NCBI RefSeq assembly: GCF_028290625.1
Contig: NZ_JAQGJM010000021.1
Location: forward strand, 253 to 64,252
Direction of reading: 5' to 3'
Source: Devosia sp.
GTDB lineage: Bacteria > Pseudomonadota > Alphaproteobacteria > Rhizobiales > Devosiaceae
Length of the DNA stretch: 64,000 bases
Below are positions 25,750 through 46,961 of this stretch, one piece after another. Both the position numbers and the translations under genes were made by a program. Position 1 is the stretch's first letter; every line of letters begins with the position of its first letter. A model generated the notes under the pieces. The model was not told where the DNA came from and made no database searches. It saw only the letters and a program-made list of their open reading frames with translations.

Positions 25750-26150
25750 TATCGGACCGAGTGAAGCAGGACTCACGCCAACACCAGTATCGCGCGGCCC
25801 ACCCATACGCGATCGGACTATTGTTTCCGCCTGTCGCCGGGTCGCACGGCTGTCTGAGCGGCAAATCAGAGATCGTTGCCCAGGTAAAACGGGGGACATT
25901 GATCATCCCCACACATGAGTCAGGCCCTTGGTACGGAGTAGATATGACCAACGGGAGTACCGCATGTGTTCACAGCGAGTTTCTTGCGCAGCTCCGGTAA
26001 GTGTTCTCCACTCAAGTATGCGGACGCAGGGTGCCTACCCTGTTGTCCATCGATGCGTTCGTTGCGCGGATCTCGAACTTTGTGCGTGGCTGGCCGATGA
26101 AAATAGCCTAGTTGCAACTCTTAGGCATACAACGGTTATCTCTTCAAACT

Positions 26151-26180
26151 TGTCAGAAACTCGCCTATATGTATCTGACA
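26151..26180. promoter_or_regulatory. Inverted repeat upstream of abiEi (candidate autoregulatory operator)
   Basis: tgtcaga-N16-tctgaca, ending 15 nt before the abiEi ATG. AbiEi antitoxins are known to bind inverted repeats in their own promoters. Confidence 0.4.
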
Positions 26181-26194
26181 GAAAGGATTGCAAC

Positions 26195-28108: not shown

Positions 28109-30946
28109 TCAACCGAACTCGTTTGGTCCTTTGATGATTAGTGTCCTGCGCTTTGCATGCACTCGCAGTTTCAGGCGAGAGAGCATCTCGAGAACAACAT
28201 CCACTGCGCGGTACGAAAAGAGGGGTGCGTCCGTTTTTTGATTATCGGACACGAGATCGGTGATCACACTGACGACGGCAATAGGCAATTCCTTGGAGAT
28301 TGCATTGGCCGCCTGAATAGCACCGGCTGCTCCTACGTCGAGAGCCGCCACGTTTCTGGCAACAGAGCTGATGACACTCGCGTCCACATATCCAAGCGCG
28401 GAACTGACTGATGCGAGCGATCCCACATGAAGGCGCCCGAAACGACCATCAATGGCCATGTCATGCCCCAGGCGCTGCAGGAGGAGCGGCGTCACAAGGA
28501 CTTGCGGCCGAATGTGATTGAGCTCATTTGACATGAACGTTGGTTCGAAGATTAGCACTTCCGACGAAATGACGACGTCGCCGATGCTCTGATTGGGCCT
28601 AAGTCCGCCACAGCGGCTTACGATGAAAACCCCGTCCGGGCGATTGTCGATCAGCATTGAGGTCATCGCAATCGCGGCGGCAACGCTGTTGGCTTCGCGA
28701 AGGATAGTGCACGTAACTCTAACTCCGTCGCGCGTTACGCCTCGGAAGTAGAGACGGCCGGACCGCGAGAACCGGCTGACGCGCAACAACCTCTCGAAGA
28801 ACGCGCTCGCCGCTTCATCGCCCTCAAGCAGAATTCCGATACGTGGTTGGCTGGAAACCTCGTCTATTGTCACGGGCTGAAGATCGTGCCGTTCCAACAC
28901 CCCGTTTGCGTCGACAGCGAGTGCGCTCCTCACTCCACCGTCCCTGACCACGGTGCCGATCACGATGCCGAGGACGTTGCCTTGCTGATCGGACACGACT
29001 GCTCCAGAGCCGCCCTCCTCAACCGGTGAATCGAGCGAGACCTCGAACACGTCGCGGTACCTTCGCTTGATCATGCCGGTGGATTGGATGTCCATGGTAA
29101 TCTCGACAGCGTCGATGCTGCCCTCGATCATCTTGGTAGGCATTTCAACGAACGCCCGCGCACCAGGTTGGCGAAAACCAAGTGCGCGCGGAGAAAATGA
29201 GAGTTCCCTTTCGACCCGGAGGATCGCCCAATCCGTGCTTCCCTCATGGATGTCAAGGGTGAGTGGGATGCGCCGCCCATCAACGACCATCTCGATGCTG
29301 TCTTGGAGAATGGTTGGAAACGCATGGGCGACGGTGACCGCGAATAGCTGGCCGGTGACGTCGGCTCCGAACAGGCCAACAGTCGCACGTCGCTCGCCAT
29401 TGACAAGGAGTTCGTGTCCGCTGGTGTAGTTCGCCGAAGTCAACTTGATTTCCTCAACTTCGCGCACGACCACCTCGAACCCTTCGATTTTGTGAGGGAG
29501 GTTCGGTTTTGCTCCCTTTTCCACCGTAACGACGATTGCCTGCTTGATTCCCACCCCGATAACACCCTGCTTCGTCATGAGCGCATCCCGTTCTGCATCG
29601 AGGACGTCATGGATCGTGGGGGCTGTATCAACCGGCTGTGCCGAACCTAGTGTGGCATCGTCATTTGGCGCGGCTTGGTGGGGCGAAGCCGGTGCCGATT
29701 TAACAACGGCTCGGTTCTGGTAGGCGGTCTCGACCACCTCGATCAAGGCGTTTGCGCCTGCCTCCCAAGAGCATTTTGATTCCAAATGGCCACGCAGACG
29801 CGGGTAGAAATATGAGTCGCCTGAGCCGTCGATAAGAAGGGGCAGCGTCGCGTCTGCGAACCGTTGCGCTGCCGCGTGCGCATCTCCTGAGGTATCGACG
29901 ACGCATGACCCAAAATCTTGACCTGCCTCGGCGCCGGTTTCAAGTATGAGTTCGGCTATTCCGCTCTGCCTCGAAACGACTATCGGAGCTCCAAACGACA
30001 TCGCCTCGCACGCGACTAAGCCATATCCTTCTTCGCGCGAAGGCATTAGAAACGCAGTGGCGCCGCGCAGGTCGGCGTTCAGGTTCTGCTTATCGGTAGT
30101 GTAAGGGCGCACCACAATCTCAGGATTGCCGCCTGCCTTCTCCGCGAGACGCACGAGCGCTTCCTGAAGCTTTTCGGGCTCGCTCTCTGCTCCCCGCACG
30201 ACGAAACGAGGTTTGAGTATTCTGGATCTAGTCTGTGCGCTCGTCGTCCATTCTTTATCGATGATGCCGGCCATAAGAGCGAATATGTCGAGGCCCTTTA
30301 CGCCGACGCTTTCAGTTCGTCCAAGGCAGACTACCGTGGGCTGCTCGGGCGCTGCGTTGCGGACGGGTTGCTCAGGCGAGAGCCCGCAGTCTATGCGATG
30401 GACCTTGTTGTGGTCGAGTTGATGCGCCTTGAAAGTGTCCTTGGTAACGCGCGTGAGACGCGGTCCCACACAAAAAACCAGGTCCGCACTTTTGGCCGCT
30501 TCAAGTTCGGCTCTTTGCTTCTCCTCGCGCTCGGAAACGTACCGGTCCTTCTTGCCCTCTTTCATGCCTTCCGTGCGCATCGGGTCCATGTGGATAAATT
30601 GGACGGTATTGGCTTGTTTGAAATAGGTGTTGCGAAGCAGAAGCGCCTGCTTGCCGGAGAAAGAGCTGTGGCCGACCACGGCCAAGACCGAACTCGGATC
30701 GATCCGTCGAACATCTTCGGATAGCATCACGCTTTCCCATTTGTCGGATTCCGCACCGTGTAGCAACGTGACGTTGTTGTTGTACGCCTGCTCGACCTCG
30801 CTCTTGTCGGCGAAGCTGACGACCGCAATGCAGTTGAGGTCGGGCCTTGTCTTGGCCAACGCTAATAGCAACTCGCGATTGACCGTCTGTATGCCGCCCT
30901 TGCTGCTGTCCCAGCGATTCATGACGAAGATGATGCTTTGCTTCAT
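28109..30946 (-). CDS. Triple-fusion protein: GT4-type glycosyltransferase + trypsin-like serine protease + PNP/MTAN-like nucleosidase domain (divergent)
   Basis: Residues 1-~420 are GT-B/GT4, with FLMPSREEGYGLVACEAMSFGAPIV (E-x7-E). Residues ~450-690 carry an S1 triad: AVTVAHAF (His), STDWAILRV (Asp), EEGGSGAVVSDQQGNVLGIVIG (Ser). Residues ~700-945 align by eye to E. coli MTAN: SVAAAIAMTSMLIDNRPDGVFIVSRCGGLRPNQSIGDVVIS and NVAALDVGAAGAIQAA..AVVSVITDLVSD. The VEME acidic motif is replaced by LDVG. Confidence 0.8.
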   Translation of the reverse strand: MKQSIIFVMNRWDSSKGGIQTVNRELLLALAKTRPDLNCIAVVSFADKSEVEQAYNNNVTLLHGAESDKWESVMLSEDVRRIDPSSVLAVVGHSSFSGKQALLLRNTYFKQANTVQFIHMDPMRTEGMKEGKKDRYVSEREEKQRAELEAAKSADLVFCVGPRLTRVTKDTFKAHQLDHNKVHRIDCGLSPEQPVRNAAPEQPTVVCLGRTESVGVKGLDIFALMAGIIDKEWTTSAQTRSRILKPRFVVRGAESEPEKLQEALVRLAEKAGGNPEIVVRPYTTDKQNLNADLRGATAFLMPSREEGYGLVACEAMSFGAPIVVSRQSGIAELILETGAEAGQDFGSCVVDTSGDAHAAAQRFADATLPLLIDGSGDSYFYPRLRGHLESKCSWEAGANALIEVVETAYQNRAVVKSAPASPHQAAPNDDATLGSAQPVDTAPTIHDVLDAERDALMTKQGVIGVGIKQAIVVTVEKGAKPNLPHKIEGFEVVVREVEEIKLTSANYTSGHELLVNGERRATVGLFGADVTGQLFAVTVAHAFPTILQDSIEMVVDGRRIPLTLDIHEGSTDWAILRVERELSFSPRALGFRQPGARAFVEMPTKMIEGSIDAVEITMDIQSTGMIKRRYRDVFEVSLDSPVEEGGSGAVVSDQQGNVLGIVIGTVVRDGGVRSALAVDANGVLERHDLQPVTIDEVSSQPRIGILLEGDEAASAFFERLLRVSRFSRSGRLYFRGVTRDGVRVTCTILREANSVAAAIAMTSMLIDNRPDGVFIVSRCGGLRPNQSIGDVVISSEVLIFEPTFMSNELNHIRPQVLVTPLLLQRLGHDMAIDGRFGRLHVGSLASVSSALGYVDASVISSVARNVAALDVGAAGAIQAANAISKELPIAVVSVITDLVSDNQKTDAPLFSYRAVDVVLEMLSRLKLRVHAKRRTLIIKGPNEFG

Positions 30947-31314: not shown

Positions 31315-34300
31315 ATGACCGAGTCGAAGTATTTTGACATTGTGGTTGTCGTGCCGCTTGAAGAGGAACTGCTTGAGGTCATCGAGCAGTTTCCGAGCAT
31401 TGAAGACCGAAGCTCCACCACGACGTGGTGTCATGTAGTCGATTCCGGGAAGCCTGGCATATCGATGCTCATCGTCCAGCAGCAGACGATGGGCAAAACC
31501 GCCGCTATAAATGCTGCGAATTTCGTTCTTTCAAAGTACGAAGCCGGCCTTATGGTCTGCCTAGGCATTGCTGGAAGTTTGAGCGGCGACGCCCGCCTGG
31601 CCAGCGTGTGCTATTCTGGCAGCATCATCGACGTCCTGGACAATGCGAAATTCGTCGACACCGACGACGGCGCCGCCGACACCGAACTTTCCCCGACCAA
31701 TTACGACACGCCGGACGAATTCACGCAGGCGTTCAATTATATCCGCACACAACCGGCCCTGTTCAAGTTTCACCAGGACTGGCAAGAACAGCGCGCTTTG
31801 GTCGCAAAAGAACTGGTTCCGCATGAAGTGCCCGCTCCTGGTGGTGGTACGGAACAAATTGGCAAGCCAACGTCCAAGGGCGGCGTGATCGTGTGCGGCT
31901 CGGTCAGTAAGAGCCACGTGTATAATGCCAAATTGCGAAAAATCGATCGCGCTTTGCTTGCGGTTGAAACGGAGTCCGGAGGGGTGTTCTCGCAAGCCCA
32001 TTTCCATGGCAGCGTTCCTGCTATCGCAGTGCGCGGCATTTCCGACTACGCCGACAAAGACAAAGGCCGGCTCGAGGATGCCAGCAAAGGTGGCGTGCGC
32101 CGGCTGGCTGCATCCAACGCGGCTTCGTTTCTTAAGCTCCAGATCGTCTGCAACACCTATTTTCATGCTGCGCTCGAAAGGCGCCGCACGGGCAGGCAAC
32201 AAGCTTTAGTCCTGGATAACCGGCCGGTAGTAGTTCAACCGCTCAGCGAACTGATGCTCGGGTTAGGTATTGCTGTGGATGCCGCACTGCGAAAACTCTC
32301 ACCCGAATACAAACTTCAGCCACAAGGCTATCATCTTCCTCTGCCGCGCATCCGTCGCCCAAACGCAACCAATGCGATCGGGACCAAGAGCGATAGCTCA
32401 CCCACCGATGTTCTCGACGCGCTGCAGGTTCAGGAAAAAATCCTCGTGAGCCTACCGCGCACATATCCGGACCACAGCCTCGCCTGGGTCATGGCCGACG
32501 ACTTGCTCACGCAGGAAATTGACGGACGACAGCCGGTACCGGTCGTGATTAACGGCGACGACATCCGGGGAAAGCGGTTCGGCTTTAACGACGTCGTCGA
32601 TATCGACCTGAACGCAATCGAGGCCATGGACGGCACTCAACTAGTTCTTATCGTTGATAACATTCCATTTGCTTCAAAGCACAGAATGGAACAGATCGTC
32701 GCCGAGATCGAGCGCTACAGCAGTGCAAAATTCATTTTTGTGACGAGGGCGGGAGACGCCGGCCTCCTCGATGAGTCAGACTTTCTAACACAGTCGGGCG
32801 CAGAGCACTTCCAGATCTGCGCTGTGTCTTTTTTCGAAATCGCGCATTTTATCCAGAAGAATTTTGGGATGACGGGCGCTGAAGCGGAGGTTGTCGCACT
32901 TCGACTTCGCGATACGTTTGAACGGTTTGATCTCGATGCTCATCCCACATACTTTGCTGGCATCCCGAAGGAAACCCTGACCGCGCTACTGCAGGCGAAC
33001 CGCCGGTCCGAACTCATTCAGCTAGCGGTCGATGGCTTCCTGACCTTCATAGTGGCTGGCGATCGCGCAGACGTCTCGCTCAGTCGGTCCACCAGGGCGC
33101 GTTTTCTGCGAAAACTTGTGGTGGAAATCAACGTCGAAAAGCGAGCCTTTGAAGAAGCCGATCTGGTTGCTTTCACGCGTGAGTTTGCAGAACTGCACGA
33201 TTTCGACATCGACCCACTGGCGTTTATCAATGGGTTCGTTGACCAAGGCATCATGCATTTTGAAGGCGGCAGGGCCCGTGTCTCGTTGCCGTTTGTGGAA
33301 TCGTATTTGCTTGCTTCGGAGTTGCACGCATCGTCAGACCTCGCACTGCGCTATTTTGATCCTGGCGACGATAACTTCGATACTGTCACTTTCGACCTTT
33401 ATGCAGAAATCGGTGCGTCGGCCGATCTCGTGCAGAGGATCGAAGCTGGACTCGAGCAGTGCATGATCGCCCTCAAGGAAAAGAACCCGGGCAAGCATAT
33501 ACTTCTCACTGACAGCATTTCCCCGGCAAATCTGCAAAAACCCGAACGAGCAGGAGCTTTGCGCAAGCGACTGCAAAAGGCTGCTGACGCAGTGCGGGAC
33601 GGAAAGGACGAGAGCCAGGAAAAGCAGCGCATGCTTGATCTGAGCGAAAAGATCCGGGAGGCCTCCGGCCGGCAGCAAAAAAGCCAGGATGGTGAAAGCG
33701 ATAAAGCTGGCGATATGGACAGAACGTTTGTGCCGCTCAACGATGCCGCGCGTCACTGGGTTATCGCCACTTTGCTCCTCGGTTCCGGCGCGGAGCACTT
33801 GAACGCCAGAACAAAACGCGCGCTAAGCACGTCGATTATCAGCAGCGCCGCTTTGATCATTGATGAATGGTGTCGCCAGCAGCAAAAAATCGACTTTGCT
33901 GCGATCAAGCGGAAAATGACCACTGACGAAGCCTTGGCTGACCTGCCTGGCGGGGAGGACATTGAAGAAAAGCGCAAGTTCATCGACGGGGGCGTCGATA
34001 TTCTGGAGTACACCGCGCTTGCCGAGCCGTTGCGACGCGTTTTGGGCTTCCTTTGCGAGCAAGCTAGACACCGCGTTCTCGCACCAAGCGTTGAGGCTGC
34101 CACAGTCGACGGCGCCATCGAAAAGATAATCCACGGCACCTGGCTAGCCGATATCGACACGGCCCGCGGCAAGGACAAACTCCGTCAGGCAATCATCGAT
34201 CTGCCGACAGCACAATTCTTTCGGGTTATCCTCGCCTCCCATTACCTGGCTCGGGTCTATTGGAATCACTGGCGTAAAGAGGATCGATTGCACCTGCTGA

Positions 34301-34431
34301 ACTCCGCTGAGGAGGTGATCAAGCCGCTTGAACTCAAGATCAACAAATCCGAGCTCAAACGGATGATCGAGACCGAAGCGGAAAAGGCGGCCAAAGAAAA
34401 AAGGCTGGAGACCGAAATCCGCAAAGGGTGA
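31315..34431 (+). CDS. PNP/MTAN-like nucleosidase fused to a STAND-like NTPase module with a degenerate P-loop and a long helical C-terminal region
   Basis: The N-terminal ~270 aa align to MTAN: DIVVVVPLEEELLEV, MGKTAAINAANFVLSKYEAGLMVCLGIAGSL, LLAVETESGGVF and AVRGISDYADKD, so the canonical acidic motifs are retained. The middle has STAND-like landmarks KILVSLPRTYPDHSL (no GK[ST]), QLVLIVDNIPF (Walker B-like), KFIFVTRAGD and ICAVSFFEIAHFIQKNFG. Confidence 0.75.
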   Translation: MTESKYFDIVVVVPLEEELLEVIEQFPSIEDRSSTTTWCHVVDSGKPGISMLIVQQQTMGKTAAINAANFVLSKYEAGLMVCLGIAGSLSGDARLASVCYSGSIIDVLDNAKFVDTDDGAADTELSPTNYDTPDEFTQAFNYIRTQPALFKFHQDWQEQRALVAKELVPHEVPAPGGGTEQIGKPTSKGGVIVCGSVSKSHVYNAKLRKIDRALLAVETESGGVFSQAHFHGSVPAIAVRGISDYADKDKGRLEDASKGGVRRLAASNAASFLKLQIVCNTYFHAALERRRTGRQQALVLDNRPVVVQPLSELMLGLGIAVDAALRKLSPEYKLQPQGYHLPLPRIRRPNATNAIGTKSDSSPTDVLDALQVQEKILVSLPRTYPDHSLAWVMADDLLTQEIDGRQPVPVVINGDDIRGKRFGFNDVVDIDLNAIEAMDGTQLVLIVDNIPFASKHRMEQIVAEIERYSSAKFIFVTRAGDAGLLDESDFLTQSGAEHFQICAVSFFEIAHFIQKNFGMTGAEAEVVALRLRDTFERFDLDAHPTYFAGIPKETLTALLQANRRSELIQLAVDGFLTFIVAGDRADVSLSRSTRARFLRKLVVEINVEKRAFEEADLVAFTREFAELHDFDIDPLAFINGFVDQGIMHFEGGRARVSLPFVESYLLASELHASSDLALRYFDPGDDNFDTVTFDLYAEIGASADLVQRIEAGLEQCMIALKEKNPGKHILLTDSISPANLQKPERAGALRKRLQKAADAVRDGKDESQEKQRMLDLSEKIREASGRQQKSQDGESDKAGDMDRTFVPLNDAARHWVIATLLLGSGAEHLNARTKRALSTSIISSAALIIDEWCRQQQKIDFAAIKRKMTTDEALADLPGGEDIEEKRKFIDGGVDILEYTALAEPLRRVLGFLCEQARHRVLAPSVEAATVDGAIEKIIHGTWLADIDTARGKDKLRQAIIDLPTAQFFRVILASHYLARVYWNHWRKEDRLHLLNSAEEVIKPLELKINKSELKRMIETEAEKAAKEKRLETEIRKG

Positions 34432-35225: not shown

Positions 35226-37196
35226 TTAGTTGAGCACGCGCCGCGGCGGCTGCGGTGCTGCCAGTCCTGCTCCTCGAACCGTGGCTGCAACGATGGCTTC
35301 CATCTCCTCTCTTCGATCCAGCAAGATACCAGATGCTCGAGCAATTGCCGCGTCGAGACGACGACGCACGCTACCAACTATGGCGGCCGGGAGTATTGTC
35401 CGCAAGACGGGATCTTCGAGGTCGACCAACCCCGCCTCACCCAATCCAGATCTGGTCTCGATTTGCCGTGCCCATGCAGTAGCCAAGGCAAGATCAGAGT
35501 AATTTGAACCCACACCCAACAATGACGCGCCGCCGAACAGAATTTCTTCTGCCGCCCGGCCTGCCATCAGAACGGCGATCGCGTCATTATAGTCCTGCCC
35601 GGTTGGAACGTGGCCTGCCTCCAGCGTCCGGGAAAGGGTTCCGCTGAAATCCACGATCTCCTCCGCGGCAACATCCATCATGTCCAAGGCTTGGGCCACG
35701 ACGACTTGGCCAGCGCGATAAGTGGCAATACGACGCCGGACCTCTGGCGGCAGTTTCTCAAAAACGCCGGGGACTTGCTGGTGCAGAGCCGAAATCGAGA
35801 AGGGGCGCCCTGCCCGACGCGCGGTTGCCCTTGCCGCACGGACCAGCTTTTCGATGTCCGCTCCAGTCTTGCCTTGCAACTTTGGTGCCAGTGTCCGCAG
35901 CTCTTTCTTGGCGATGCTCGAACCTGCATAGTGGGCCAAGATCGCGGTGATCTCGTCGGAGCTTGGAAGCTTCATGATAATAGTATGGTCGAGCCGGCCA
36001 GACCGCGTGAGGGCAGGATCGATCCGCTCGACGTAGTTCGTCGCGCCAACCAGCACGAGACCTGGAGTGGTCGTTGCCTGCGTCACGAGCTCCAACATCA
36101 AATTGACGATCTGCGTCCAGTACTCAGCGTAGCGTCCAGAGATACTCTGCCGGCTTGATATGCCATCGAGCTCGTCGACGAGCAAAACGCAGGGCGCCTT
36201 CTCCATCGCCTCGTTGAACACCATCCGCATCTTTTTAAGTGTGCCCGAGAGATAGTCTTGCGTGTTCCATTCCGCGACGCTCGAGGCGATCAGGGGAACA
36301 TGCAGCGTACCCGCCAAGAGGCCGGCGAAGCTGGTCTTCCCCGTGCCAGGCGGGCCTGCCAGCAGCACGGAGCGGTGATCAACTTCCTCCCACGACAGTT
36401 GGCCACGCCGCCAGATCTCGAAGTCTTGAGCGAGCTCCAGACCCCAAACTCGTGCCTCCCCATAGCCGTGCTGGTCCTGCAATCTGGCGCGATCGACCTG
36501 CTTTACCGGCTCCTTCGGCATCAACGACTTGAGGCTGTCGACGCAGGCCTCTGGCGAGCGCCCGCGTCGGAAATGCAGGGCCAGATCACTTGCGGCCAGC
36601 TTACTTGGACTGCCCAGGTCTGAAAAGTTAGCTGGCATCCGGCCAAAAAATTCGACGAAGGCAGCTGCTAGCATGTCGCGTGTCAGTGTGGAGGCGTCGA
36701 CGATGACATCGGCGACTGTGGTGAACTGGGCAGGCGCACTCGCCTCAGGATCATAGAGCCAAACCACCGGCAGGCCACGTCTTCCGGCGTCGGCCGCCAG
36801 TCGTAGGCGCTCGTCAATTCTGGATCCGGAGCCAATGAAAATTGGGTATTTATCTTGGGCGCGCAGTTGATATTGAGGCTCAACGATAGCTCCTGAGGCC
36901 GACAGAACGACTTTGAGCACGCTGGCCATCAGCCCCGCATCCTCGGTAGTGCGAACCGTTATTGCGATGAATTGGGTGGTGGTGGCGAGCTCATTCAGGG
37001 ATTGAAAATGGGGCGCCAGGGCCAAGCCGATTAGGTGCGCGGCAAGAACGTGCTCGGCACCGTAGCCGGGCACGGAAATTGGTTCTGACAGGTCGTCGAC
37101 TTCTGACGACGGTTCGCTGGCGACGTTGGCGCGAAGCTGCTGAAGAATGAGTTCAGTAAGCGGATTTGATCCAGCGCTGGATTTAGAAGTGACCAC
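35226..37196 (-). CDS. Soluble FtsH-like AAA+ protein with an inactivated M41 peptidase domain
   Basis: Walker A LLAGPPGTGKTSF, Walker B VLLVDELDG, SRH LVGATNYVERIDPALTRSGRLD. The C-terminal region is collinear with FtsH M41 (MAGRAAEEILFG, SNYSDLALATAWARQ), but the HEAGH zinc motif reads YRAGQ (IATYRAGQVVVAQAL). No N-terminal TM helices. Confidence 0.8.
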   Translation of the reverse strand: MVTSKSSAGSNPLTELILQQLRANVASEPSSEVDDLSEPISVPGYGAEHVLAAHLIGLALAPHFQSLNELATTTQFIAITVRTTEDAGLMASVLKVVLSASGAIVEPQYQLRAQDKYPIFIGSGSRIDERLRLAADAGRRGLPVVWLYDPEASAPAQFTTVADVIVDASTLTRDMLAAAFVEFFGRMPANFSDLGSPSKLAASDLALHFRRGRSPEACVDSLKSLMPKEPVKQVDRARLQDQHGYGEARVWGLELAQDFEIWRRGQLSWEEVDHRSVLLAGPPGTGKTSFAGLLAGTLHVPLIASSVAEWNTQDYLSGTLKKMRMVFNEAMEKAPCVLLVDELDGISSRQSISGRYAEYWTQIVNLMLELVTQATTTPGLVLVGATNYVERIDPALTRSGRLDHTIIMKLPSSDEITAILAHYAGSSIAKKELRTLAPKLQGKTGADIEKLVRAARATARRAGRPFSISALHQQVPGVFEKLPPEVRRRIATYRAGQVVVAQALDMMDVAAEEIVDFSGTLSRTLEAGHVPTGQDYNDAIAVLMAGRAAEEILFGGASLLGVGSNYSDLALATAWARQIETRSGLGEAGLVDLEDPVLRTILPAAIVGSVRRRLDAAIARASGILLDRREEMEAIVAATVRGAGLAAPQPPRRVLN

Positions 37197-37318
37197 GATG
37201 TGCTCCTGACTACGGCCCTTTTGGCCGCGAGTTGTGTCAAGGAGTGCGGCTCAGGGTCACTGTCTGCAGGCGCTCCGCCGTTTCGGCATCGGCATACAAG
37301 AACGAAACAGGAACAATG

Positions 37319-37501
37319 TCAACCGAGTTTCTGGTCGAGCGATTTGGCTATGATTTCTTCGACGAGCTCGTAAGCATGGCGGCCCTCCTCGAGTGCTTTC
37401 ATCTTGATCGACTGAATGAGTCTAGGATCAAGGTACACAACGAATTTCTTGCGACCGTCTGGCCGTTGCACCGCGCCTGTCATTTTGCCTGGTTTCTCCA
37501 A
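37319..37501 (-). CDS. Ribbon-helix-helix (CopG/Arc/ParG-like) DNA-binding protein
   Basis: KKFVVYLDPRLIQSIKMKALEEGRHAYELVEEIIAKSL shows a beta-strand/helix/helix pattern. Palindromic operators lie upstream at 37606-37641. Confidence 0.7.
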   Translation of the reverse strand: MEKPGKMTGAVQRPDGRKKFVVYLDPRLIQSIKMKALEEGRHAYELVEEIIAKSLDQKLG

Positions 37502-37605
37502 AATCAGAGACTCTTAGTTTTTCGCAAACCTGTATACCGCGGCGCGGTTGCCAAAATCTGCGCGCACGCGACAGAAGTGCGCGTTTCTGATCAACAAAGT
37601 GTAAA

Positions 37606-37641
37606 CCTAGACGTCTAGACACCTAGGTGCCTAGACGTCTA
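37606..37641. promoter_or_regulatory. Two perfect 12-bp palindromes (ctagacgtctag) flanking a 10-bp palindrome (cacctaggtg): candidate operator array
   Basis: ctagacgtctag at 37606-37617 and 37630-37641, and cacctaggtg at 37619-37628. The array lies in the divergent intergenic region between the RHH gene (-) and the 208-aa ORF (+), and a TTGACT hexamer follows at 37645-37650. Confidence 0.6.
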
Positions 37642-37730
37642 GGTGTTGACTTTTCAGCATAGCGGCGCAGATTTGGCGAGACCCTGGGAATTCGGTCTCT
37701 TTTGGCAAAAACTCAATCAGGAGTACCAGA

Positions 37731-38357
37731 ATGAGCGCTGACGTTCTCTCTTTTCCCGGGCCAGTCCAGTCAACAGACACTGGCCGTGGTTTCAACTGCT
37801 TCAAAAGCGACGGGCCCATCCGCTATACTAGGCGCTGCTGTCGCGACGCGCTGATCCAGGCAACCCTCGATCCCGACATTGTTCGCATCTTCGAACCCGA
37901 CGTGGCCCGCACCACCCCCAAGGACACGTTTTTCAATTTCGGCGTCGAAATCGGCGAGCGGCGCTGTTTGCTCGCACTTTGCGACGAGACCAATGGAGAA
38001 ACATTCTCCGCGCCCTCAGGCTTTGACCTTGGAATCTGCTTCAACCGCGATGCAATCCTGGCTGAGCCTGCGCTGACGACCTCACGCACAGTTTGGTCCC
38101 GTCGTGATGTTCTGGTGCCGCCGGCATTTTCGGTGCGCGTGCTTCGCCGGCTTGCGACGGCGGATGTCGGGTTGGGGCTCGGCGAACTCGAGGACGAGTT
38201 GGTCGACGAGCCAAAAAGATGGGTCGACTACATCCTGTCGATGGTTTGTGCCGGCCTCGTGAGTTGCGACTGCCGCCACCCCATCACTGACGATACCAGG
38301 GTTGGTTTGGGTCCACCTTCTGGGCGGCGAGCAACTCAGAAGCATTGGCTCTACTGA
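37731..38357 (+). CDS. Hypothetical protein (208 aa)
   Basis: ORF with host-like codon bias immediately upstream of the Tn7-like module. Only a weak resemblance to the TnsA-N/endonuclease-fold pattern (RDALIQATLDPDIVRIFEPD), and the catalytic residues are absent. Confidence 0.5.
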   Translation: MSADVLSFPGPVQSTDTGRGFNCFKSDGPIRYTRRCCRDALIQATLDPDIVRIFEPDVARTTPKDTFFNFGVEIGERRCLLALCDETNGETFSAPSGFDLGICFNRDAILAEPALTTSRTVWSRRDVLVPPAFSVRVLRRLATADVGLGLGELEDELVDEPKRWVDYILSMVCAGLVSCDCRHPITDDTRVGLGPPSGRRATQKHWLY

Positions 38358-38752: not shown

Positions 38753-39424
38753 ATGCTTGATTCTACATCCTTCACCCCTACCCTGCACAGCCGCGCCTCG
38801 CGGCACATCGCCCTTCGAGCAAAGGGGCACTTTTCCGGCGCCTGCGTCATATACAAGGGCGGGACGCGCCAACTCGTCGTCTTTGAATCGCGGTGTGAAC
38901 TCGTGACCAGCTACCGCTGGTCCACCCGTCCCGACGTCGTCGACCTCATCGATCAGTATCCACTCGATCCCTACGTCGATGACGACGGGTCTGAGCACCG
39001 CCACGTGCTGGACTTCCTTGCGATCATGGACGACGGCCGACGGATCGGCCTCTCGGTGAAGCCCGAGGGTTCAGCGCAGCGCCGCGACTTCCGCCGCACC
39101 CTGCAGCTGATCTTGGCCCAAAACGCGGACCACCTGGACGAACTGCGCCTTGTGACTGAGAAGTCATTCACTCGGGCAGAAGCCGAAAACGCGGAACTGA
39201 TCCATTTCGTCGGCTCCGAAATCGACGACGAAGCGGATCGCCTGGTCGCAGATGTGATCGCCAGCCTCGCTGGAACGACCACGATCGAGAGCATCGTCAA
39301 CGCCACAGGCCTCGAAGGCCGCGCCTTCCGCGCCGTCATTCGCATGGTGGGTCGACGGGTCTGTTTCCAGGTCGATGAAGGTCGGCTGCGCTATCCCACA
39401 CTCGTACGCAGGAATGCAGCATGA
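38753..39424 (+). CDS. tnsA: TnsA-like endonuclease (Tn7-type transposition protein A)
   Basis: Restriction-endonuclease-fold motifs in order: VVFESRCE, HVLDFLAIMDDGRRIGLSVKPEGS (E...D...xK). Confidence 0.75.
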   Translation: MLDSTSFTPTLHSRASRHIALRAKGHFSGACVIYKGGTRQLVVFESRCELVTSYRWSTRPDVVDLIDQYPLDPYVDDDGSEHRHVLDFLAIMDDGRRIGLSVKPEGSAQRRDFRRTLQLILAQNADHLDELRLVTEKSFTRAEAENAELIHFVGSEIDDEADRLVADVIASLAGTTTIESIVNATGLEGRAFRAVIRMVGRRVCFQVDEGRLRYPTLVRRNAA

Positions 39425-39660
39425 ACCCGTTCCGTTTTTCCGCTGCCGACACCGTCAAGATCGCCGGAACCGTGTTTCAGCTCTGCGACGTGCGGCTGGA
39501 TGGCTATCTCCTTCGCCGCGCCCCCGACAATGCTGCCGAGTTCCACAGCAACGCCCAACTGATGGACATGTGGGTCCACGGCCTCGTTGACCCGCAGTTT
39601 GCTAACCCTGGTCCTTACTGGCAGGGGAAGATGCCAGACGCAGACGGTGCTGCGAAATGA
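39421..39660 (+). CDS. Small protein (79 aa) coupled between tnsA and tnsB
   Basis: ATGA overlaps at both ends (39421-39424 and 39657-39660). Weak similarity to the first ~50 aa of the downstream TnsB. Confidence 0.5.
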   Translation: MNPFRFSAADTVKIAGTVFQLCDVRLDGYLLRRAPDNAAEFHSNAQLMDMWVHGLVDPQFANPGPYWQGKMPDADGAAK

Positions 39661-41804
39661 CCCGGCTCCGTCTCGCCACTGTCGACAGACTTACCATCCA
39701 CTCCACCTTCTATCGCCCCATTGAAGACAATGAGGAGGGCGTTCTGTTGGAACGCCCCGACGGGCTGAAGGAGTCCTTCACCCATGAACAGCTGGAGGCC
39801 CTCTGGGGCAGCAACAGTTTGACGTTCGAGCCGGGCTATTACAGCGAGGCCAGGGCACGCATTCGCCTTCATACTGATGAAGAGCTTCTCAGCAACCTCT
39901 CCCCGGCCGAGCGGGAAGCATGCCTGTGGCGTCAGGCATATTGCGACCTGTTCCTGAAGTCGCGGGCCACCGACCCCAAGAAGTACAAGCGCACCAATGA
40001 CAGCGCATCGGCTGCCGCCTTGGATTTTGCGCCCATCATCGAGAAGTTGGGGCTCAAGGCTCCCGACAGCGTCGGGACACAGGCAAAAAGCCCGAAACGG
40101 AAGACGCGTGCCAAACCGAAGCTGACGGTCCAGCCCCCAGAAAAAGTCGGCGTTCCTTCGGGTCGCGCACTGCTGGGCTGGGTGCGGCTGTACGAGCGCA
40201 ATGGATGCTACGCCATAAGCCTGCGCGACAACCGCAGATTTTCGGGTAACTTCAATCCGCGTTTTGTCGCCGAAGTGCTGCACCTTCTCGCGCTCGTGGT
40301 GAAGCGCTTCGCCTCGGCGGAGCGGCCCACGAAAACTGAAGTCCACGCCAATCTCGAACGAGCGATCAAGAAGGCCAACAGGGCCCGCAAGCTCGAGAAC
40401 CTCGATCCCTTGCCCACACCCGGACGTGACATGACGGATGAGGCGATCGATCGCCTCCCGAAGTACGCCACGATGGTAGCCCGGTACAACAAAGAATACG
40501 CCGACAAGCACATGCCCTGGGTTGGTGCTGGCCTGCAGGTCGATATTCCGGGCCTCCGCATCGAAATCGATGAGCACGAAATCGATCTCATGACGCTGTG
40601 TTGCGTCGCGGGGATATGGGATCAGTTGACCGAAGAGGAACGCGCCAACATCGAGCGCGCTCGTCGCCTGGTCATCATTGCGATCTGCGTGGCCACCAAG
40701 GTCATCCTCGCCCTTCGGATCATCGACCGTGCCACGCCCATGGCGCAGCTGAAGGCGCTGGAGATGATCTCGCAGGACAAAACTCGATATGCACTGGCCG
40801 CTTCCGCCAAGTCCACCTGGCATCAGAGATGTGGCCTGAGCGGCGTGGTGACGGATTGGAATTTCCTGTCCCACGAGGTGCGCACGGCCGTGGCGGACTC
40901 CGGCGGCACGCTGGAATTTCCAGGCGCCGGCGACGCCCCGGCTCGTGGCACGGTCGAGCACGTTTTCTATACTGCCAGCCTGGGTCCAATTGCCCGTCTG
41001 CCGGGCCGGACGTTTTCCAATCCCGTCGTCAAGGCCGATCACGATTCCCAGGGGCGTGCGGGTGTCACCGACGATGAACTGGCCGACGTTCTCGTCAACT
41101 GGGCCGTCGACAACTACCACAACACCGCACACGACTCCCTCCATGGGGCGACGCCGGCTAACACTTGGGAGCACGCGGTCCGGCGCTATGGAATCAAGCC
41201 GCCGCCAGACCAGCGAACCCTGCGGGCCATCCACGGCATAAAGCTCAAGCGCACGATCAGCAGCCGCGGCATCCGCGTCATGTCGAACTATTACCGGACG
41301 GAAAGCGGGCCATTGGGCGAACACTTCCGCGATAGCAACGACCTTGAGGTCGAGATCCGCGTAAACACCGACAATCTGGGGGCCATATCGGTACGCCTGC
41401 CCACCGGAAAGCTGATTGAGGTGCCTTGCCGTGAGGCCTCGATGGAGGGGGTCACTGCGCAGTGGTGGATCGCTGCCACCACGCACCTGCGAACTCAAAA
41501 TCGGCATGAAAGCAATTTGTCGCGCGAGGTGGCTCTTGAGTCCCTCGACTATGTCGACAACCTCGCTCAACGCGCCCACAGCCGGGCCAATGTGAGGGCC
41601 TACCTGTATTCCCCCGAGGAGATCGACCAGGCCGAGGTCGCGTATTTCTACCACCTCGAATTCGCCGACCAACGCCGTCCCGCCGCGGACGACGGCTATG
41701 GCGAAGTAATTTCGGCGGAAAGCCCGGCGTCGAAACCGGTTGACCAGCCCGAAACCCCGCCTTCTCCCCTCCCCTCGCCTGCAAAGAACTGGAGCCTGGA
41801 CTGA
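39657..41804 (+). CDS. tnsB: TnsB-like DDE transposase (Mu/Tn7 family, rve-type catalytic core)
   Basis: 715 aa. Catalytic-core stretch LRIEIDEHEIDLMTL, GTVEHVFYT and NYHNTAHDSLHGATPANTWE (typical integrase-core end), plus a C-terminal acidic/Pro-rich tail. Confidence 0.85.
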   Translation: MTRLRLATVDRLTIHSTFYRPIEDNEEGVLLERPDGLKESFTHEQLEALWGSNSLTFEPGYYSEARARIRLHTDEELLSNLSPAEREACLWRQAYCDLFLKSRATDPKKYKRTNDSASAAALDFAPIIEKLGLKAPDSVGTQAKSPKRKTRAKPKLTVQPPEKVGVPSGRALLGWVRLYERNGCYAISLRDNRRFSGNFNPRFVAEVLHLLALVVKRFASAERPTKTEVHANLERAIKKANRARKLENLDPLPTPGRDMTDEAIDRLPKYATMVARYNKEYADKHMPWVGAGLQVDIPGLRIEIDEHEIDLMTLCCVAGIWDQLTEEERANIERARRLVIIAICVATKVILALRIIDRATPMAQLKALEMISQDKTRYALAASAKSTWHQRCGLSGVVTDWNFLSHEVRTAVADSGGTLEFPGAGDAPARGTVEHVFYTASLGPIARLPGRTFSNPVVKADHDSQGRAGVTDDELADVLVNWAVDNYHNTAHDSLHGATPANTWEHAVRRYGIKPPPDQRTLRAIHGIKLKRTISSRGIRVMSNYYRTESGPLGEHFRDSNDLEVEIRVNTDNLGAISVRLPTGKLIEVPCREASMEGVTAQWWIAATTHLRTQNRHESNLSREVALESLDYVDNLAQRAHSRANVRAYLYSPEEIDQAEVAYFYHLEFADQRRPAADDGYGEVISAESPASKPVDQPETPPSPLPSPAKNWSLD

Positions 41805-41806: not shown

Positions 41807-42817
41807 ATGGAACACTTTCCCCTTCCGCCTAGCTTCGATCGGCTGACGGCCTTGCGCTCAAAGTACGTCACGACCTCGCGTGACCAGAAGGTCAGCACCA
41901 TCATCGACACCATCCTGACAAACCGCGAAATCGCCCATCGCATCTCTCAGCCGCTTTCGCGCGTGGGCATGATCGTCACTGCCGGCTCCGGGGCCGGCAA
42001 AACAACCACACTGATCCGGGGAATTCAACGCCATCCAGCTCTTCAACCAACAAGCGACGACGACTTGCCGGCCGTTTGCTTCAAGGTCGAAAGCCCTGTC
42101 ACATTGAAAGCCCTCGCCCTGCAGATGCTCCGCCAGCTCGGCTACCCCGTCAACGGAAAGGGTACCCGCGCGAACTATTGGGAGGACGTCCGCCAGCATC
42201 TGATGCTTCGGAATACAAAGCTGATCTGGCTGGACGAAAGCCAGGATGTCTTTGCTGGACGCAATGCCCGCGACGCCGGCGAAGTGCTCAGCACACTGAA
42301 GGGGCTCATGAGCGGACCCGATTGGCCCGTAGCCCTCGTTCTGTCGGGTGTTCCGGATCTGCTCGATCAATGCGCTCACGATCGACAACTCCTGCGAAGG
42401 ACCTTTCCGGTGGCGCTGGAACCGATATCCGCCGCCGCCGATGGCGAGGCGCTTCGGAGCATCATCGCCGAGTATTGTGCCGTTGCCGGTGTCAGCCACA
42501 CCCTGCCCGATGACTTGGTCGCCCGTCTGATCCACGCTACGGGCGGGATGCTCGGGACCTCTCTCGAACTGATCGTGGATGCGCTGCAAGACTTGCTTCT
42601 AGCGAACGGCCATGTCCTGACCATCGATAACTTCGTGCGCGCCTACCAGCAGCACAACGACCGCCCGACGCCGCTCAACATCTTTCTCGTGGCTGGTTGG
42701 CAGTCGATCAGCACCAACGCAACCCAAACCAGTGCGGCGGCCACGCCGGCTGCTGCCAGTCTCAAAAGCGATGCAAAGCGGAGAAAATCGATCGATCGGA
42801 GCCAAGGACCATGGTGA
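41807..42817 (+). CDS. tnsC: TnsC/TniB-like AAA+ transposition ATPase
   Basis: Walker A MIVTAGSGAGKTTTLIRG and Walker B KLIWLDESQDVF. Positioned between the transposase and tniQ. Confidence 0.88.
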   Translation: MEHFPLPPSFDRLTALRSKYVTTSRDQKVSTIIDTILTNREIAHRISQPLSRVGMIVTAGSGAGKTTTLIRGIQRHPALQPTSDDDLPAVCFKVESPVTLKALALQMLRQLGYPVNGKGTRANYWEDVRQHLMLRNTKLIWLDESQDVFAGRNARDAGEVLSTLKGLMSGPDWPVALVLSGVPDLLDQCAHDRQLLRRTFPVALEPISAAADGEALRSIIAEYCAVAGVSHTLPDDLVARLIHATGGMLGTSLELIVDALQDLLLANGHVLTIDNFVRAYQQHNDRPTPLNIFLVAGWQSISTNATQTSAAATPAAASLKSDAKRRKSIDRSQGPW

Positions 42818-44628
42818 AACTGGCTCTGACTGTGCCCTCGATAACCCATGAAACGCCCTTGTCGCTGGCGTTTCGACTGGCGTCCCGCAACGCCCGTGCT
42901 TCAGCACGAAGATTCTGCTCTGACATGGCGCTGTCTTTCGAAAAGCTGTTTGACGGTGACGTCGAGCTTACGGCCTCGCTCGCAGAGTTGGCGGGGATTG
43001 TCGAAGAGGAGCTGGCGTCCTCATCTATTCGCCGCGTCGGCGTGAAGATGTACATGTTGGGCCACGAGCCTCTGCATCCGAGCATCTTGCGCCGAGAAGC
43101 GGTTCGGGTGTGTCCCGCCTGCGTCCTTCACGATCGTCTCATGACAAATTTGCCGCCGGGCGCTTCCATGGCCGGCCGCGTGGCTTGGCAGCTGCGTCCC
43201 GCCCGCACCTGTATCGAGCACCATTTGCCCCTACTGACCTTTCCAATAAACGGAACGAATGACCATCACGACTTCGGCTTTTGGCTCGACAGAGTGCCGG
43301 TGCGCGATTTGCTCCGGGCGGCCCAAACAGAATGCCGCTCGCCGAGTGGGTTGGAGGAATACCTTGATCGGCGCCTCTTTCACGCGGCACGAACGGGATC
43401 CTGGCTGGACGATATCCCCATCGGCGCCCTCTCCCGGTGCTGTGAAATCGTGGGAGCCATGATCGATCATGGCCGTGATGTTCGTCTCGACTCGCTCGGC
43501 GAGGACGCCCTGCACAAAGCTGGTGGCGTGGGGTTCGCCATCTTGGTAACCGGCCCGCGTCACCTACGCGATTTCCTGGCTACGCTCCAAGAACGGTCGG
43601 GTCTTGCCGGCCCCGCTGGCGCACAGCAAATGTTTGGGGCGCTGTATAAGTGGCTGGCGTTTTCGGCATCCGGCTCTGACGCCGATGCCATACGTCAGGT
43701 CGTGCGGACCCACATTGTCGAAACCCTGCCTGTCGGCCCCAAAGACAATGTCCTCGGCTTGCCCGTCGAGAAACGGGTGATCCATTCAGTGTCAACGGCG
43801 GCCGCCGAGTACGGCCTCCACATCAAGACACTTCGAAACAACCTGGTTTCCGCAGGTATTGTCACCGCCGACGAAACCGTGGTGCACGCGCAAGCAGTGT
43901 TCAAAGCCGACGAGAACGAATCCCTGCTCGATCGCCTGCGGCGAGGCATGCCAGCGATCGCCCTGCGCAAGTACATGCACATCGATCGAGTGCCACTGAC
44001 CATCATTACGACCAACCGGATCCTGTCGCCAATAGTGTCCGGCAACAATGTCGAACAACTGTTCGACTCAAGGGATGCGGATCAAATACTGGCCGATCTG
44101 GGCCGTGGTGCAGTGAGCGTGGTCGAGCCTGCCGGAAACCAAGTCAGCGTCTCTATGGCTACCCGGCGCGCGAACTGCTCCCTCCTTGAAACACTTAGGC
44201 TGATGCTGGCTGGCGAACTCACCTGGGTAGGCCTTCTCGATCGCGAGGAAGGGTATCGCGCCTTGCTAATCGATCACCAAGAACTTCGTCAAAAGGTGGC
44301 CTTGCCGCCGTTAGAAGGCTTGATCCCGAGCGCAATCATCAGGAAACTTGGCATCAGGGGGGATGCCGTTCAGAAAATAATTTCATCGGGGCACTTGAGT
44401 ACCCTTGCCGGGATCAATCCGACGAAGCGCTGTCCTCAGCGCGTCGTGCCGTTCGAGGCGTTTGACAGGTTTAACGCCACCTATATTTCGTTGCGGGATG
44501 TCGCCCGCCAGATGAACCAGGCCTCGGCGCGAAAGGCGCTGGCGCTCCTCGCCAACGACGACATCTTTCCGGTACGCGAGTTTCAGAGTTATGGCGCCTA
44601 CTTGTTTTTGAGATCCAGCCTGAAATAG
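42811..44628 (+). CDS. tniQ: TniQ/TnsD-family target-selection protein
   Basis: N-terminal TniQ pattern ETPLSLAFRLASRNARASARRFC and a Cys cluster VRVCPACVLHD..CIEHH. ATGGTGA overlap with tnsC. Start moved to ATG 42811. Confidence 0.85.
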   Translation: MVKLALTVPSITHETPLSLAFRLASRNARASARRFCSDMALSFEKLFDGDVELTASLAELAGIVEEELASSSIRRVGVKMYMLGHEPLHPSILRREAVRVCPACVLHDRLMTNLPPGASMAGRVAWQLRPARTCIEHHLPLLTFPINGTNDHHDFGFWLDRVPVRDLLRAAQTECRSPSGLEEYLDRRLFHAARTGSWLDDIPIGALSRCCEIVGAMIDHGRDVRLDSLGEDALHKAGGVGFAILVTGPRHLRDFLATLQERSGLAGPAGAQQMFGALYKWLAFSASGSDADAIRQVVRTHIVETLPVGPKDNVLGLPVEKRVIHSVSTAAAEYGLHIKTLRNNLVSAGIVTADETVVHAQAVFKADENESLLDRLRRGMPAIALRKYMHIDRVPLTIITTNRILSPIVSGNNVEQLFDSRDADQILADLGRGAVSVVEPAGNQVSVSMATRRANCSLLETLRLMLAGELTWVGLLDREEGYRALLIDHQELRQKVALPPLEGLIPSAIIRKLGIRGDAVQKIISSGHLSTLAGINPTKRCPQRVVPFEAFDRFNATYISLRDVARQMNQASARKALALLANDDIFPVREFQSYGAYLFLRSSLK

Positions 44629-46474: not shown

Positions 46475-46502
46475 ATAACGGGTTAAGCGCCAGCAACTAA
46501 AA

Positions 46503-46884: not shown

Positions 46885-46961
46885 TACTGCGCAAATGAGG
46901 ACTACTGGGCCTCCTAGTGAGGCCTACTGAACCTAATCAGGACTGGGCCGAGTTGGATTGC

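Follow-up and report, generated by a model that had tools for sequence, protein, structure and literature searches.

The stretch of DNA analysed here, 64,000 nucleotides of a Devosia sp. contig (NZ_JAQGJM010000021.1; hereafter the window), carries a gene for a 656-residue FtsH-like protein, referred to below as the AAA gene, beside the genes of a Tn7-like transposition operon. This protein probably serves a mobile element as a damage-induced protein remodeller, rather than being a partner of the neighbouring defence genes, because its relatives travel with Tn7-like elements and carry a predicted LexA switch. It is made of three parts, namely an N-terminal domain (N-domain) that looks AAA-like but degenerate, an AAA module that seems active, and a domain resembling the M41 peptidase of FtsH that lacks the HEXXH motif. 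The family to which it belongs appears to be undescribed so far.

The connection to transposition was visible from both directions. Among 86 loci seeded with relatives of the AAA gene (loci carrying relatives are labelled L001 etc.), tnsB lay within 10 kb in 36, and the AAA gene was nearly always at the tnsA side. Four layouts were present: the AAA gene divergent from the tns genes and p208, a 208-residue TnsA paralogue, as in the window; the AAA gene, p208 and tns genes in that order; p208 and the AAA gene alone; and p208-AAA-tnsA-tnsB-tniB-tniQ. In the window, the order is AAA gene (-), LexA box, a ribbon-helix-helix (RHH)-like gene (-), a putative palindromic operator, and then p208, tnsA, tnsB, tniB, and tniQ (all +). 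In the reverse test, a metagenome scan seeded with TnsB, the AAA gene was directly upstream of tnsA in about 12 of the roughly 26 loci that had at least 5 kb upstream of tnsA and was missing from about 14; compact p208-AAA-tnsA-tnsB-tniB-tniQ strings were among the former. The AAA gene is a recurrent, optional accessory of Tn7-like transposons.

Moreover, relatives of the AAA gene have moved together with the tns genes. L020 and L040, from two Methylobacterium species, were 97.7% identical over 13.75 kb, a stretch comprising the AAA gene with 2.3 kb or more of its upstream sequence, a helix-turn-helix (HTH) gene, p208, and tnsA to tniQ, while the 11.7 kb that L076 and L078 shared at 94.6% identity ran from the AAA promoter as far as the end on the tniQ side. 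In all four, homology ended sharply at ...CCATGTTTTGCC(T/C)(G/C)AA(T/G)C(T/C)ACA, beyond which lay four unrelated flanks. This shared ...ACA terminus is an end of the Tn7 type; in these relatives, the AAA gene and the tns genes travel together. The second end of the L078- and L020-type elements was not found within the flanks fetched, with up to nine mismatches allowed. As in the Tn7 family, the window and many related loci hold all four core genes (TnsA, TnsB, TnsC, TniQ/TnsD), and relatives have a TGT...ACA terminus; unlike in that family, related elements have their variable region upstream of tnsA, with only about 230 bp separating the tniQ end from the terminus. In the papers searched, no Tn7-like element was described with an FtsH-like gene, nor with a second, dead TnsA or with control by LexA.

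When the regions upstream of the family genes were aligned, a direct repeat, GTTC-N7-GTTC, proved to be conserved at about 110-170 nt from the start codon; it is the LexA-binding motif of alphaproteobacteria (PMC3091678). An exact sense-strand copy was present upstream of 46 of 80 full-length family genes, including that of the window, against about 2 expected by chance (background of 0.05 per 700 nt, both strands). The box was conserved in members from Devosia, Methylobacterium, Microvirga, and Rhizobium, and in p208-AAA operons (L079, L085, L086, L117) it preceded p208 instead. In the window, a TTGACA hexamer (37317-37322) overlaps the stop codon of the RHH-like gene, and the box occupies the spacer that follows this hexamer. 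From these sequences we infer LexA control, and with it SOS induction, of the AAA gene.

A further regulatory layer may be encoded between the AAA gene and p208. The short gene directly upstream of the AAA gene had no Pfam match, so that its assignment as ribbon-helix-helix is a reading of the sequence; its homologues were located upstream of the AAA gene in L006, L011, L014, L015, and L034, and small HTH or RHH genes were among the commonest neighbours of the family. The CTAGACGTCTAG palindromes are taken to be an operator because they are confined to the divergent promoter region and conserved there. The same palindromes and the RHH gene occupied the same place in L006 and L014, with proteins 46-65% identical to those of the window, and most simply the operator would serve the RHH protein. 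As to p208, it was present anywhere in the locus in 45 of 86 cases and aligned with the TnsA family over 163 columns (hhalign probability 63%, E 7e-5); it appears to be a catalytically dead TnsA, since the E, D, and K catalytic positions are replaced.

The AAA gene begins with a GTG start codon, with AGGAG 7 nt upstream, and its 656-codon frame is intact. Pfam AAA matched residues 277-408 (E 1e-27), and the NCBIfam FtsH_fam profile (TIGR01241) placed residues 275-595 on profile positions 196-528 of 598 at 121.9 bits, below the equivalog cut-off of 600 bits. The Walker A, Walker B, and sensor-1 motifs were invariant across 70 relatives, and R398 and R401 of the second region of homology (SRH) did not vary either; the AAA module, which is of the classical clade, is thus intact, as an earlier note on this DNA had claimed. 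An AlphaFold2 (AF2) model, for which the input alignment held the 70 relatives, reached a pLDDT (predicted local confidence) of 83.5. Its top Foldseek matches in the PDB were cytosolic regions of FtsH, spanning AAA and M41 over about 425-450 columns (2ce7, 6gcn, 4ww0, 3kds, 2dhr), and AFG3L2, YME1, and the Ycf2-FtsHi motor ranked next. Pore loop 1 has been altered, in that the FtsH sequence 'MFVGVGA' corresponds in the family to W-N-x3-(Y/H/F/N)-L-S-G with a three-residue insertion. Here, W310, N311, L316, S317, and G318 are conserved, L-S-G being invariant, and the aromatic position varies.

The C-terminal domain scored 26.2 bits against Pfam Peptidase_M41, under the gathering threshold of 29.9. 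With the C-terminal 246 residues as the query, phmmer recovered only FtsH-family chains among solved structures (FtsH and FtsH-like AAA+ proteins such as Fhl3), and the match spanned residues 421-646. In these alignments (4ww0, 6gcn, 2dhr), 'riatYRAGQvvva' stood column for column with 'kiaiHEAGHalmg', MAGRAAEEILFG of the FtsH-like protein paired with LGGRAAEEVFFG of the FtsH structures, and SNYSDLALAT (35478-35507, -) paired with FtsH ENDLQRAT. By the last of these alignments the third zinc-ligand Asp of FtsH is kept, as D568 in the xDLxxAT helix, and it is invariant in the family. The earlier note had proposed that the C-terminal domain is collinear with M41 and that HEAGH has become YRAGQ; the structure alignments bear out both proposals, the latter at residues 493-497, and the former is also borne out by the Foldseek AAA-M41 matches and by the FtsH profile alignment that the note had called for, which was collinear at the score given above. 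The note had also named an intact HEXXH elsewhere, or an unrelated C-terminus, as evidence to the contrary, and neither was found, the whole protein having been scanned for HEXXH. In the best explanation, the M41-like domain would no longer bind zinc through HEXXH or hydrolyse peptides.

The N-domain is specific to the family at the level of sequence, with phmmer returning 35 matches in 1.8 billion representative proteins, whose lengths and matched regions fit the same family or its fragments. An AF2 model of this domain (pLDDT 83.4; predicted TM score, pTM, 0.74) had an alpha/beta-plus-lid fold without a P-loop or Walker motifs, and Foldseek matched it to AAA+ ATPases only (TRIP13, katanin, Bcs1, NSF D2, p97, RFC), all marginally (E 3e-4 to 2e-2, TM score 0.3-0.4). 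The domain described earlier as unique and of about 260 residues is therefore family-specific by sequence but models as a degenerate AAA-like domain that lacks a P-loop, and on this model the whole would resemble a two-tier AAA protein whose first tier is dead. No N-terminal transmembrane pair was detected by hydropathy or in the model, the hydropathy maximum of 1.83 falling within the confidently folded alpha/beta domain. This agrees with the previous statement that the transmembrane helices of FtsH are missing, and the protein is predicted to be soluble and cytosolic.

Relatives of the protein numbered 486 by protein search and 350 by a scan of 185,579 species genomes. The 350 genomic relatives all came from Alphaproteobacteria, mainly Hyphomicrobiales, and the genera of the family include Devosia, Methylobacterium/Methylorubrum, Mesorhizobium, Bosea, Bradyrhizobium, Afipia, Microvirga, and Rhizobium. 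The family was also present on 62 plasmids in PLSDB, for example the megaplasmid of Methylorubrum extorquens AM1 and Rhizobium plasmids. Phage homologues of the protein were not found beyond the AAA domain.

Two states of the HEXXH position were evident in the family alignment, Y-[RQ]-x-x-Q in one Devosia clade and HEAGH, HESGH, HECGH, or HEGGH in all others, with most members retaining HEAGH. In a neighbour-joining tree the Y[RQ]xxQ sequences formed a single clade, which indicates that HEXXH was lost once. The genus Devosia holds both types. In Devosia sp. UYZn731, which has multiple copies, the complete copies L009 and L012 were both of the dead type, and L010 was a 463-residue fragment in which neither motif was found. 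The replacement residues Y, R/Q, and Q were conserved between sequences merely 36-49% identical. Within the Y[RQ]xxQ clade, the M41-like domain had a ratio of nonsynonymous to synonymous substitution rates (dN/dS) of 0.16-0.21, with a second pair at 0.08; the AAA module had 0.06-0.18 and the N-domain 0.18-0.24. A dN/dS of about 0.2 argues that the dead M41-like domain is maintained by selection and is not a pseudogene. With the dead domain under selection and the ATPase motifs intact, the label 'pseudo-protease unfoldase' that had been given to the protein is fair, unfolding being a prediction.

The two types also differed in what follows the gene. Clades with an intact HEXXH had a small open reading frame (ORF) translationally coupled at the stop codon, of three unrelated types of about 65, 90, and 110 residues, and the Y[RQ]xxQ clade had none. 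The 60-70-residue type overlapped the AAA gene by GTGATG or ATGA (L078, 11572-11796), had equivalents in 28 loci (e.g., L003, 10163-10366), and displayed the motif L..AID.LC.IL..DRE.VI.GLAEIVRKR..FE without a Pfam match. The coupled ORFs of Afipia/Bradyrhizobium (about 90 residues) and Rhizobium (about 110 residues) were unrelated to it.

We propose that the FtsH-like protein acts as a cytosolic, ring-forming AAA+ unfoldase that is an accessory of Tn7-like transposons of the Hyphomicrobiales. LexA would repress the AAA gene through the GTTC-N7-GTTC box, DNA damage would remove LexA so that the unfoldase is made, and the unfoldase, driven by ATP, would pull an element-encoded DNA-bound protein off its site. 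The candidate substrates are an RHH- or Xre-type repressor on the operator of the tns operon, or the TnsA/TnsB/TnsC complex recognised via p208, and DNA damage would thereby be coupled to transposon activity. In most lineages the substrate would presumably be degraded as well, because HEAGH is intact there, while the protein of the Devosia lineage would do no more than unfold, strip, or hold it. We put forward this idea, of an SOS-induced, FtsH-derived unfoldase that strips or remodels an element-encoded DNA-bound protein of a Tn7-like element, as a tentative one, with a chance somewhat short of even. A narrower version, in which the dead TnsA paralogue serves as the adaptor of the machine and removal of a repressor or dismantling of TnsA/B/C lets damage switch or reset transposition, is rather unlikely in that exact form. 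The protein is predicted to form hexamers or rings and to hydrolyse ATP, and its substrate and its influence on transposition are predictions too.

Several observations weigh against this proposal. About half of the related transposons had no AAA gene, which is thus dispensable for transposition, and in about half of the related loci tns genes were missing within 10 kb. The closest relatives (73-79% identity; L001/L009, L007, L008, L010) shared only the gene and its promoter, with no tns genes nearby, so that the AAA module also occurs by itself. Neither short-word BLAST on both sides nor alignment of the sequence downstream of tniQ located the ends of the window's own element, and these searches gave only genome-wide repeats resembling repetitive extragenic palindromic (REP) sequences; that the AAA gene lies inside the element in the window is for this reason deduced from its relatives. 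The LexA box was absent from the Bradyrhizobium, Afipia, Bosea, and Mesorhizobium branches, and a consensus promoter scan made no call at the box in the window, where a promoter would have been missed because its -10 element is weak. No RNA runs holding the window sequence were found, only metagenome DNA runs (a soil-metagenome contig). As pore loop 1 is without the canonical aromatic residue, it is uncertain whether the protein threads its substrates. Lastly, other subclades pair the AAA gene with genes for a metallophosphoesterase, DUF6634, and Xre/MbcA/ParS-like proteins, and the window gene adjoins a cyclic-oligonucleotide-based anti-phage signalling system (CBASS), AbiE, an IetA-like AAA gene with DUF6414, and giants bearing purine nucleoside phosphorylase (PNP) and trypsin-like domains, both of which resemble a conflict or defence setting.

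These last two points lead to the main alternative, namely that transposons and plasmids carry the AAA-M41 protein as cargo which, by itself or together with p208 or other partners, acts against phages or mobile elements. Its ATPase would sense or remodel an invader protein, nuclease-like or metallophosphoesterase proteins would be the effectors, and the Devosia protease would have turned into a scaffold. Tn7-like elements are known to carry many defence systems as cargo (PMC8649781), the AAA gene is multi-copy, patchy, and plasmid-borne, and its partners differ by clade (p208, the three coupled ORF types, metallophosphoesterase, DUF6634, Xre/MbcA/ParS). Outside FtsH and Cdc48, moreover, the best PADLOC/NCBIfam similarity of the protein is to IetA (IteA) of IetAS, a classical-clade AAA ATPase of defence islands. 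That match, however, is to the generic AAA core only, at 87 bits against a cut-off of 510; IetA has no M41 domain, and the immediate neighbours of the AAA gene are the RHH-like gene, p208, and a 114-residue ORF, with no IetS serine protease beside it. Further, p208 and the other neighbours had no PADLOC match, none of the phage matches went beyond the AAA domain, and the position next to tnsA is fixed across TnsB proteins that are 27-34% identical, whereas ordinary cargo varies in position. LexA control is, to our knowledge, unusual for known defence systems, which also speaks against cargo of this kind. On balance, defence cargo is a serious possibility but a doubtful one.

The protein could instead serve the host as a damage-induced cytosolic segregase that clears proteins stuck on DNA (crosslinks, stalled complexes), the transposon link being hitch-hiking. 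In eukaryotes, p97/Cdc48-type AAA proteins remove DNA-stuck proteins, and the conservation of the LexA box across four genera, the many loci without tns genes, and p208, a nuclease-fold protein that probably binds DNA, would be in keeping with such a role. We consider it unlikely, as a core repair factor would be single-copy and syntenic, while the AAA gene is in variable mobile contexts with sharp module boundaries, is multi-copy in some genomes, and is absent from most alphaproteobacteria (350 relatives in the genomes scanned). Very improbable is a regulatory subunit in the manner of plastid FtsHi, by which the dead protein would enter mixed hexamers with an active HEAGH paralogue or FtsH and tune their activity. 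HEXXH has indeed been lost with the ATPase motifs and M41 fold kept, Devosia has both types, and FtsHi structures (8xku, 8xqw) were among the Foldseek matches; nevertheless, the window has no HEAGH paralogue, the complete copies of UYZn731 are all dead, mixing with membrane-bound FtsH is unlikely because the FtsH-like protein has no membrane anchor, and the dead clade has also lost the coupled small ORF, which points to a changed, self-contained action. Finally, a decaying pseudogene or annotation artefact is scarcely credible. A relative in Devosia sp. A8/3-2 (L037) is broken into fragments, but the frame of the window gene and the invariance of all ATPase motifs, the conservation of Y, R/Q, and Q between distant sequences, and dN/dS of 0.06-0.24 over all three domains effectively refute it.

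The preferred reading, a damage-induced remodeller of a mobile element, has counterparts among known systems. FtsH (HflB; TIGR01241, PF01434) degrades lambda CII, CIII, and Xis and so decides the fate of mobile-element regulators. The FtsH-like protein is collinear with it over the AAA and peptidase folds and keeps the GRAAEE helix and the third zinc-ligand Asp, but it has no transmembrane helices or periplasmic domain, no HEXXH, an extra AAA-like N-domain, and an altered pore loop 1, and its gene is borne on mobile elements, patchy, and multi-copy, with a LexA box. It is not filed as FtsH because the HEXXH, the membrane anchor, and the equivalog score all fail. Plastid FtsHi proteins, which co-assemble with FtsH12, are likewise FtsH-derived, with the zinc motif lost and the M41 fold and ATPase motifs kept, and they appeared among both sequence and fold matches (Ycf2-FtsHi import motor; 8xku, 8xqw, 8xks). 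The analogy to them drawn in the earlier note holds for the loss of HEXXH but not further, as the protein here is predicted to be soluble, lacks the membrane anchor, and belongs to a transposon and SOS-box context, and the loss was an independent, bacterial event that arose once, in a single Devosia clade of a family otherwise HEAGH. By analogy, ImmA/ImmR-type anti-repressor proteases of ICEs and prophages and ClpX-Mu offer a similar logic for the proposed action: the metalloprotease ImmA cleaves the ImmR repressor of ICEBs1 on DNA damage, and ClpX disassembles the Mu transpososome. In each, a protease or unfoldase associated with or exploited by the element removes a repressor or transposase complex, so that the life cycle of the element is tied to DNA damage or to the completion of transposition, and the RHH/HTH gene, operator, and LexA box would be the corresponding parts here. 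Neither has any sequence relationship to the FtsH-like protein, ImmA being a small COG2856 metalloprotease and ClpX a host protein.

There is a substantial chance that the FtsH-like family reveals a new layer in the control of Tn7-like transposition. Provided that the transposition link holds, this layer would comprise a damage-sensing promoter, a private unfoldase/protease, and a decoy TnsA for Tn7-like elements, on which CRISPR-guided transposon tools are built. If the narrower version with p208 as the adaptor is true, this would be the first transposon-encoded AAA+ protease/unfoldase in the Tn7 family, and the Devosia machine would have evolved from a protease to a pure unfoldase, a natural example of active and inactive forms doing the same job. 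Even as defence cargo, the family would represent a new ATPase-protease defence architecture under SOS control. One loss event, continuing selection, and active sister lineages together make a natural experiment on the role of a non-cutting M41 domain, and relatives in tractable organisms (the M. extorquens AM1 megaplasmid and Rhizobium plasmids) make the question directly testable.

Table 1. Features of the AAA gene and the adjoining Tn7-like operon in the window
Feature	Position	Strand	Basis
FtsH-like gene (AAA gene), 656 aa	35226..37196	-	ORF call, Pfam/NCBIfam, PDB alignments, AF2, Foldseek
N-terminal domain, aa 1-262	36411..37196	-	AF2, Foldseek, phmmer
AAA module, aa 263-470	35787..36410	-	Pfam, PDB alignments, family alignment, motif location
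Walker A GPPGTGKT, aa 281-288	36333-36356	-	
Altered pore loop of AAA module	36240-36272	-	
Walker B LLVDELD, aa 338-344	36165-36185	-	
Sensor-1 GATN, aa 384-387		-	
SRH DPALTRSGRLD, aa 393-403, two Arg	35988-36020	-	
M41-peptidase-like domain, aa 471-656	35226..35786	-	PDB alignment, family alignment, Foldseek, dN/dS
YRAGQ (aa 493-497) at the FtsH HEXXH zinc-binding/catalytic position	35706..35720	-	Alignment to FtsH structures
Predicted LexA (SOS) box GTTCCTGTTTCGTTC, GTTC-N7-GTTC	37300..37314	-	118 nt upstream of the AAA start codon
RHH-like gene, 54-60 aa, putative repressor	37319..37501	-	Read from sequence; directly upstream of the AAA gene
Putative palindromic operator, 58 nt, CTAGACGTCTAG twice and degenerate CTAGACACCTAG overlapping the first	37596..37653	.	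Divergent promoter region, RHH/AAA versus p208-tns
p208, TnsA paralogue, commonest family neighbour	37731..38357	+	hhalign to TnsA family
TnsA-like endonuclease, E..D..K kept	38753..39424	+	Pfam Tn7_TnsA-like_N (weak), hhalign
TnsB-like DDE transposase, D305/D400/E434 invariant	39657..41804	+	Pfam Mu-transpos_C (weak), alignments
TniB/TnsC-like AAA+ regulator	41807..42817	+	Pfam TniB E 7e-14
TniQ/TnsD-like target selector	42697..44628	+	Pfam TniQ E 2e-12

Candidate transposon ends other than the ...ACA terminus were rejected. cTGTGGACAagc, where homology starts upstream of the Methylobacterium genes, had no matching target-site duplication and precedes the LexA box in the manner of a -35 element; in addition, the homology of L076 and L078 continues past it, and that of L020 and L040 extends upstream of the AAA gene for 2.3 kb or more. 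The CTAGACGTCTAG palindromes were dismissed as TnsB-binding end repeats, as they occur in the divergent promoter region only and are conserved there in relatives. The presence or absence of a tns element beside a 99.4%-identical AAA segment (L071 versus L067) had raised the idea that the AAA gene is an attachment-site gene, like glmS for Tn7, which is disfavoured given that both the orientation and the order of AAA/p208 with respect to tnsA vary over the four layouts and the AAA gene is co-mobile. On one contig of Methylorubrum thiocyanatum (L017/L076), two FtsH-like genes (about 76% identical DNA) flank one Tn7-like operon, one at the p208/tnsA side and the other about 1.8 kb beyond the tniQ-side terminus, which could reflect insertion next to a resident copy. 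Searches for ends were confounded by palindromic repeats of the REP or miniature inverted-repeat transposable element (MITE) kind, located at 46501-47380, 47970-48085, 4543-4636, and 10136-10226 of the window. One of these was an 81-nt unit with 247-nt spacing and inverted copies, and another was the CCCGCGGGTCAAGCCCGCGGGAAG palindrome, scattered over the window.

An unbiased clustering that took in every ORF up to 4 kb from the AAA gene in 83 loci recovered p208 in 32, the small coupled ORF in 28, TnsA in 27, TnsB in 25, DUF6634 in 23, a 118-residue HTH protein in 19, a divergent Xre-type HTH in 18, a metallophosphoesterase in 15, an Xre-type HTH on the same strand in 11, and an Xre/MbcA/ParS antitoxin-like protein in 10. 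In Mesorhizobium, Bosea, and Rhizobium (L005, 7044-10867; L152, 10377-14351; L153, 8509-11330), the FtsH-like gene was flanked by, or in an operon with, metallophosphoesterase, DUF6634, and Xre/MbcA/ParS-like genes, which suggests that one ATPase-protease core works with alternative sets of effectors or partners.

The earlier note had linked the AAA gene functionally to two giant neighbours of 945 and 1038 residues. We abandoned these as partners, along with the 114-residue downstream ORF, since neither tblastn nor iterated hidden Markov models detected a homologue of any of them beside any of the 86 loci. The 945-residue giant (28109-30946, -) has GT4-conflict glycosyltransferase, trypsin-like, and PNP/nucleosidase domains, and the divergent 1038-residue giant (31315-34431, +) has an N-terminal PNP/nucleosidase domain (PADLOC PN-superfamily effector, weak). 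The defence island in which the note had placed the gene is real at 18-34 kb (CBASS, AbiE, and others) but not specific to the FtsH-like family.

Within that island, a complete-looking type II CBASS (18432-22978) consisted of a CD-NTase (SMODS; PADLOC cyclase E 9e-134), a Cap2-like gene with an E1/ThiF domain, and a SAVED-endonuclease effector (PADLOC E 8e-204). At 23174-25749, a 411-residue IetA-like AAA ATPase (23174-24409; PADLOC IetA, 110 bits), 11 kb from the AAA gene, overlapped the start of a 447-residue DUF6414 protein located where the protease partner would be expected, and the pair may represent a variant of the IetAS kind in which the effector differs. Similar AAA genes encoding 347-417 residues were a few kb from the FtsH-like gene in L021, L043, L066, L067, and L071. 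An AbiEi/AbiEii toxin-antitoxin (abortive infection) pair followed at 25928-27812, the AbiEi-like protein also having DUF6088, and at the left edge of the low-G+C island a Tle1-like phospholipase domain (a type VI secretion system effector family, E 1e-71) was fused to LysM (16945-18327).

Directly downstream of tniQ, a HipA_2-like kinase (weak match) and a DUF3037 protein (44890-46474) had weak PADLOC candidate matches only (PDC-M03A, PDC-M66B) and may be a small toxin-type or defence pair carried as transposon cargo. The defence island, the FtsH-like gene, and the Tn7-like operon all fell within a block from about 18000 to 47000 with a G+C content of 55-59%, compared to 60-67% in the flanks, which may be one large acquired region. 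Outside of this block, about 3.3 kb of the window (12929-16303, - / 12992-16705, +), where the long ORF had no Pfam match, was 76-80% identical at the DNA level to flanks in L027, L070, and L079, which are from other genera.

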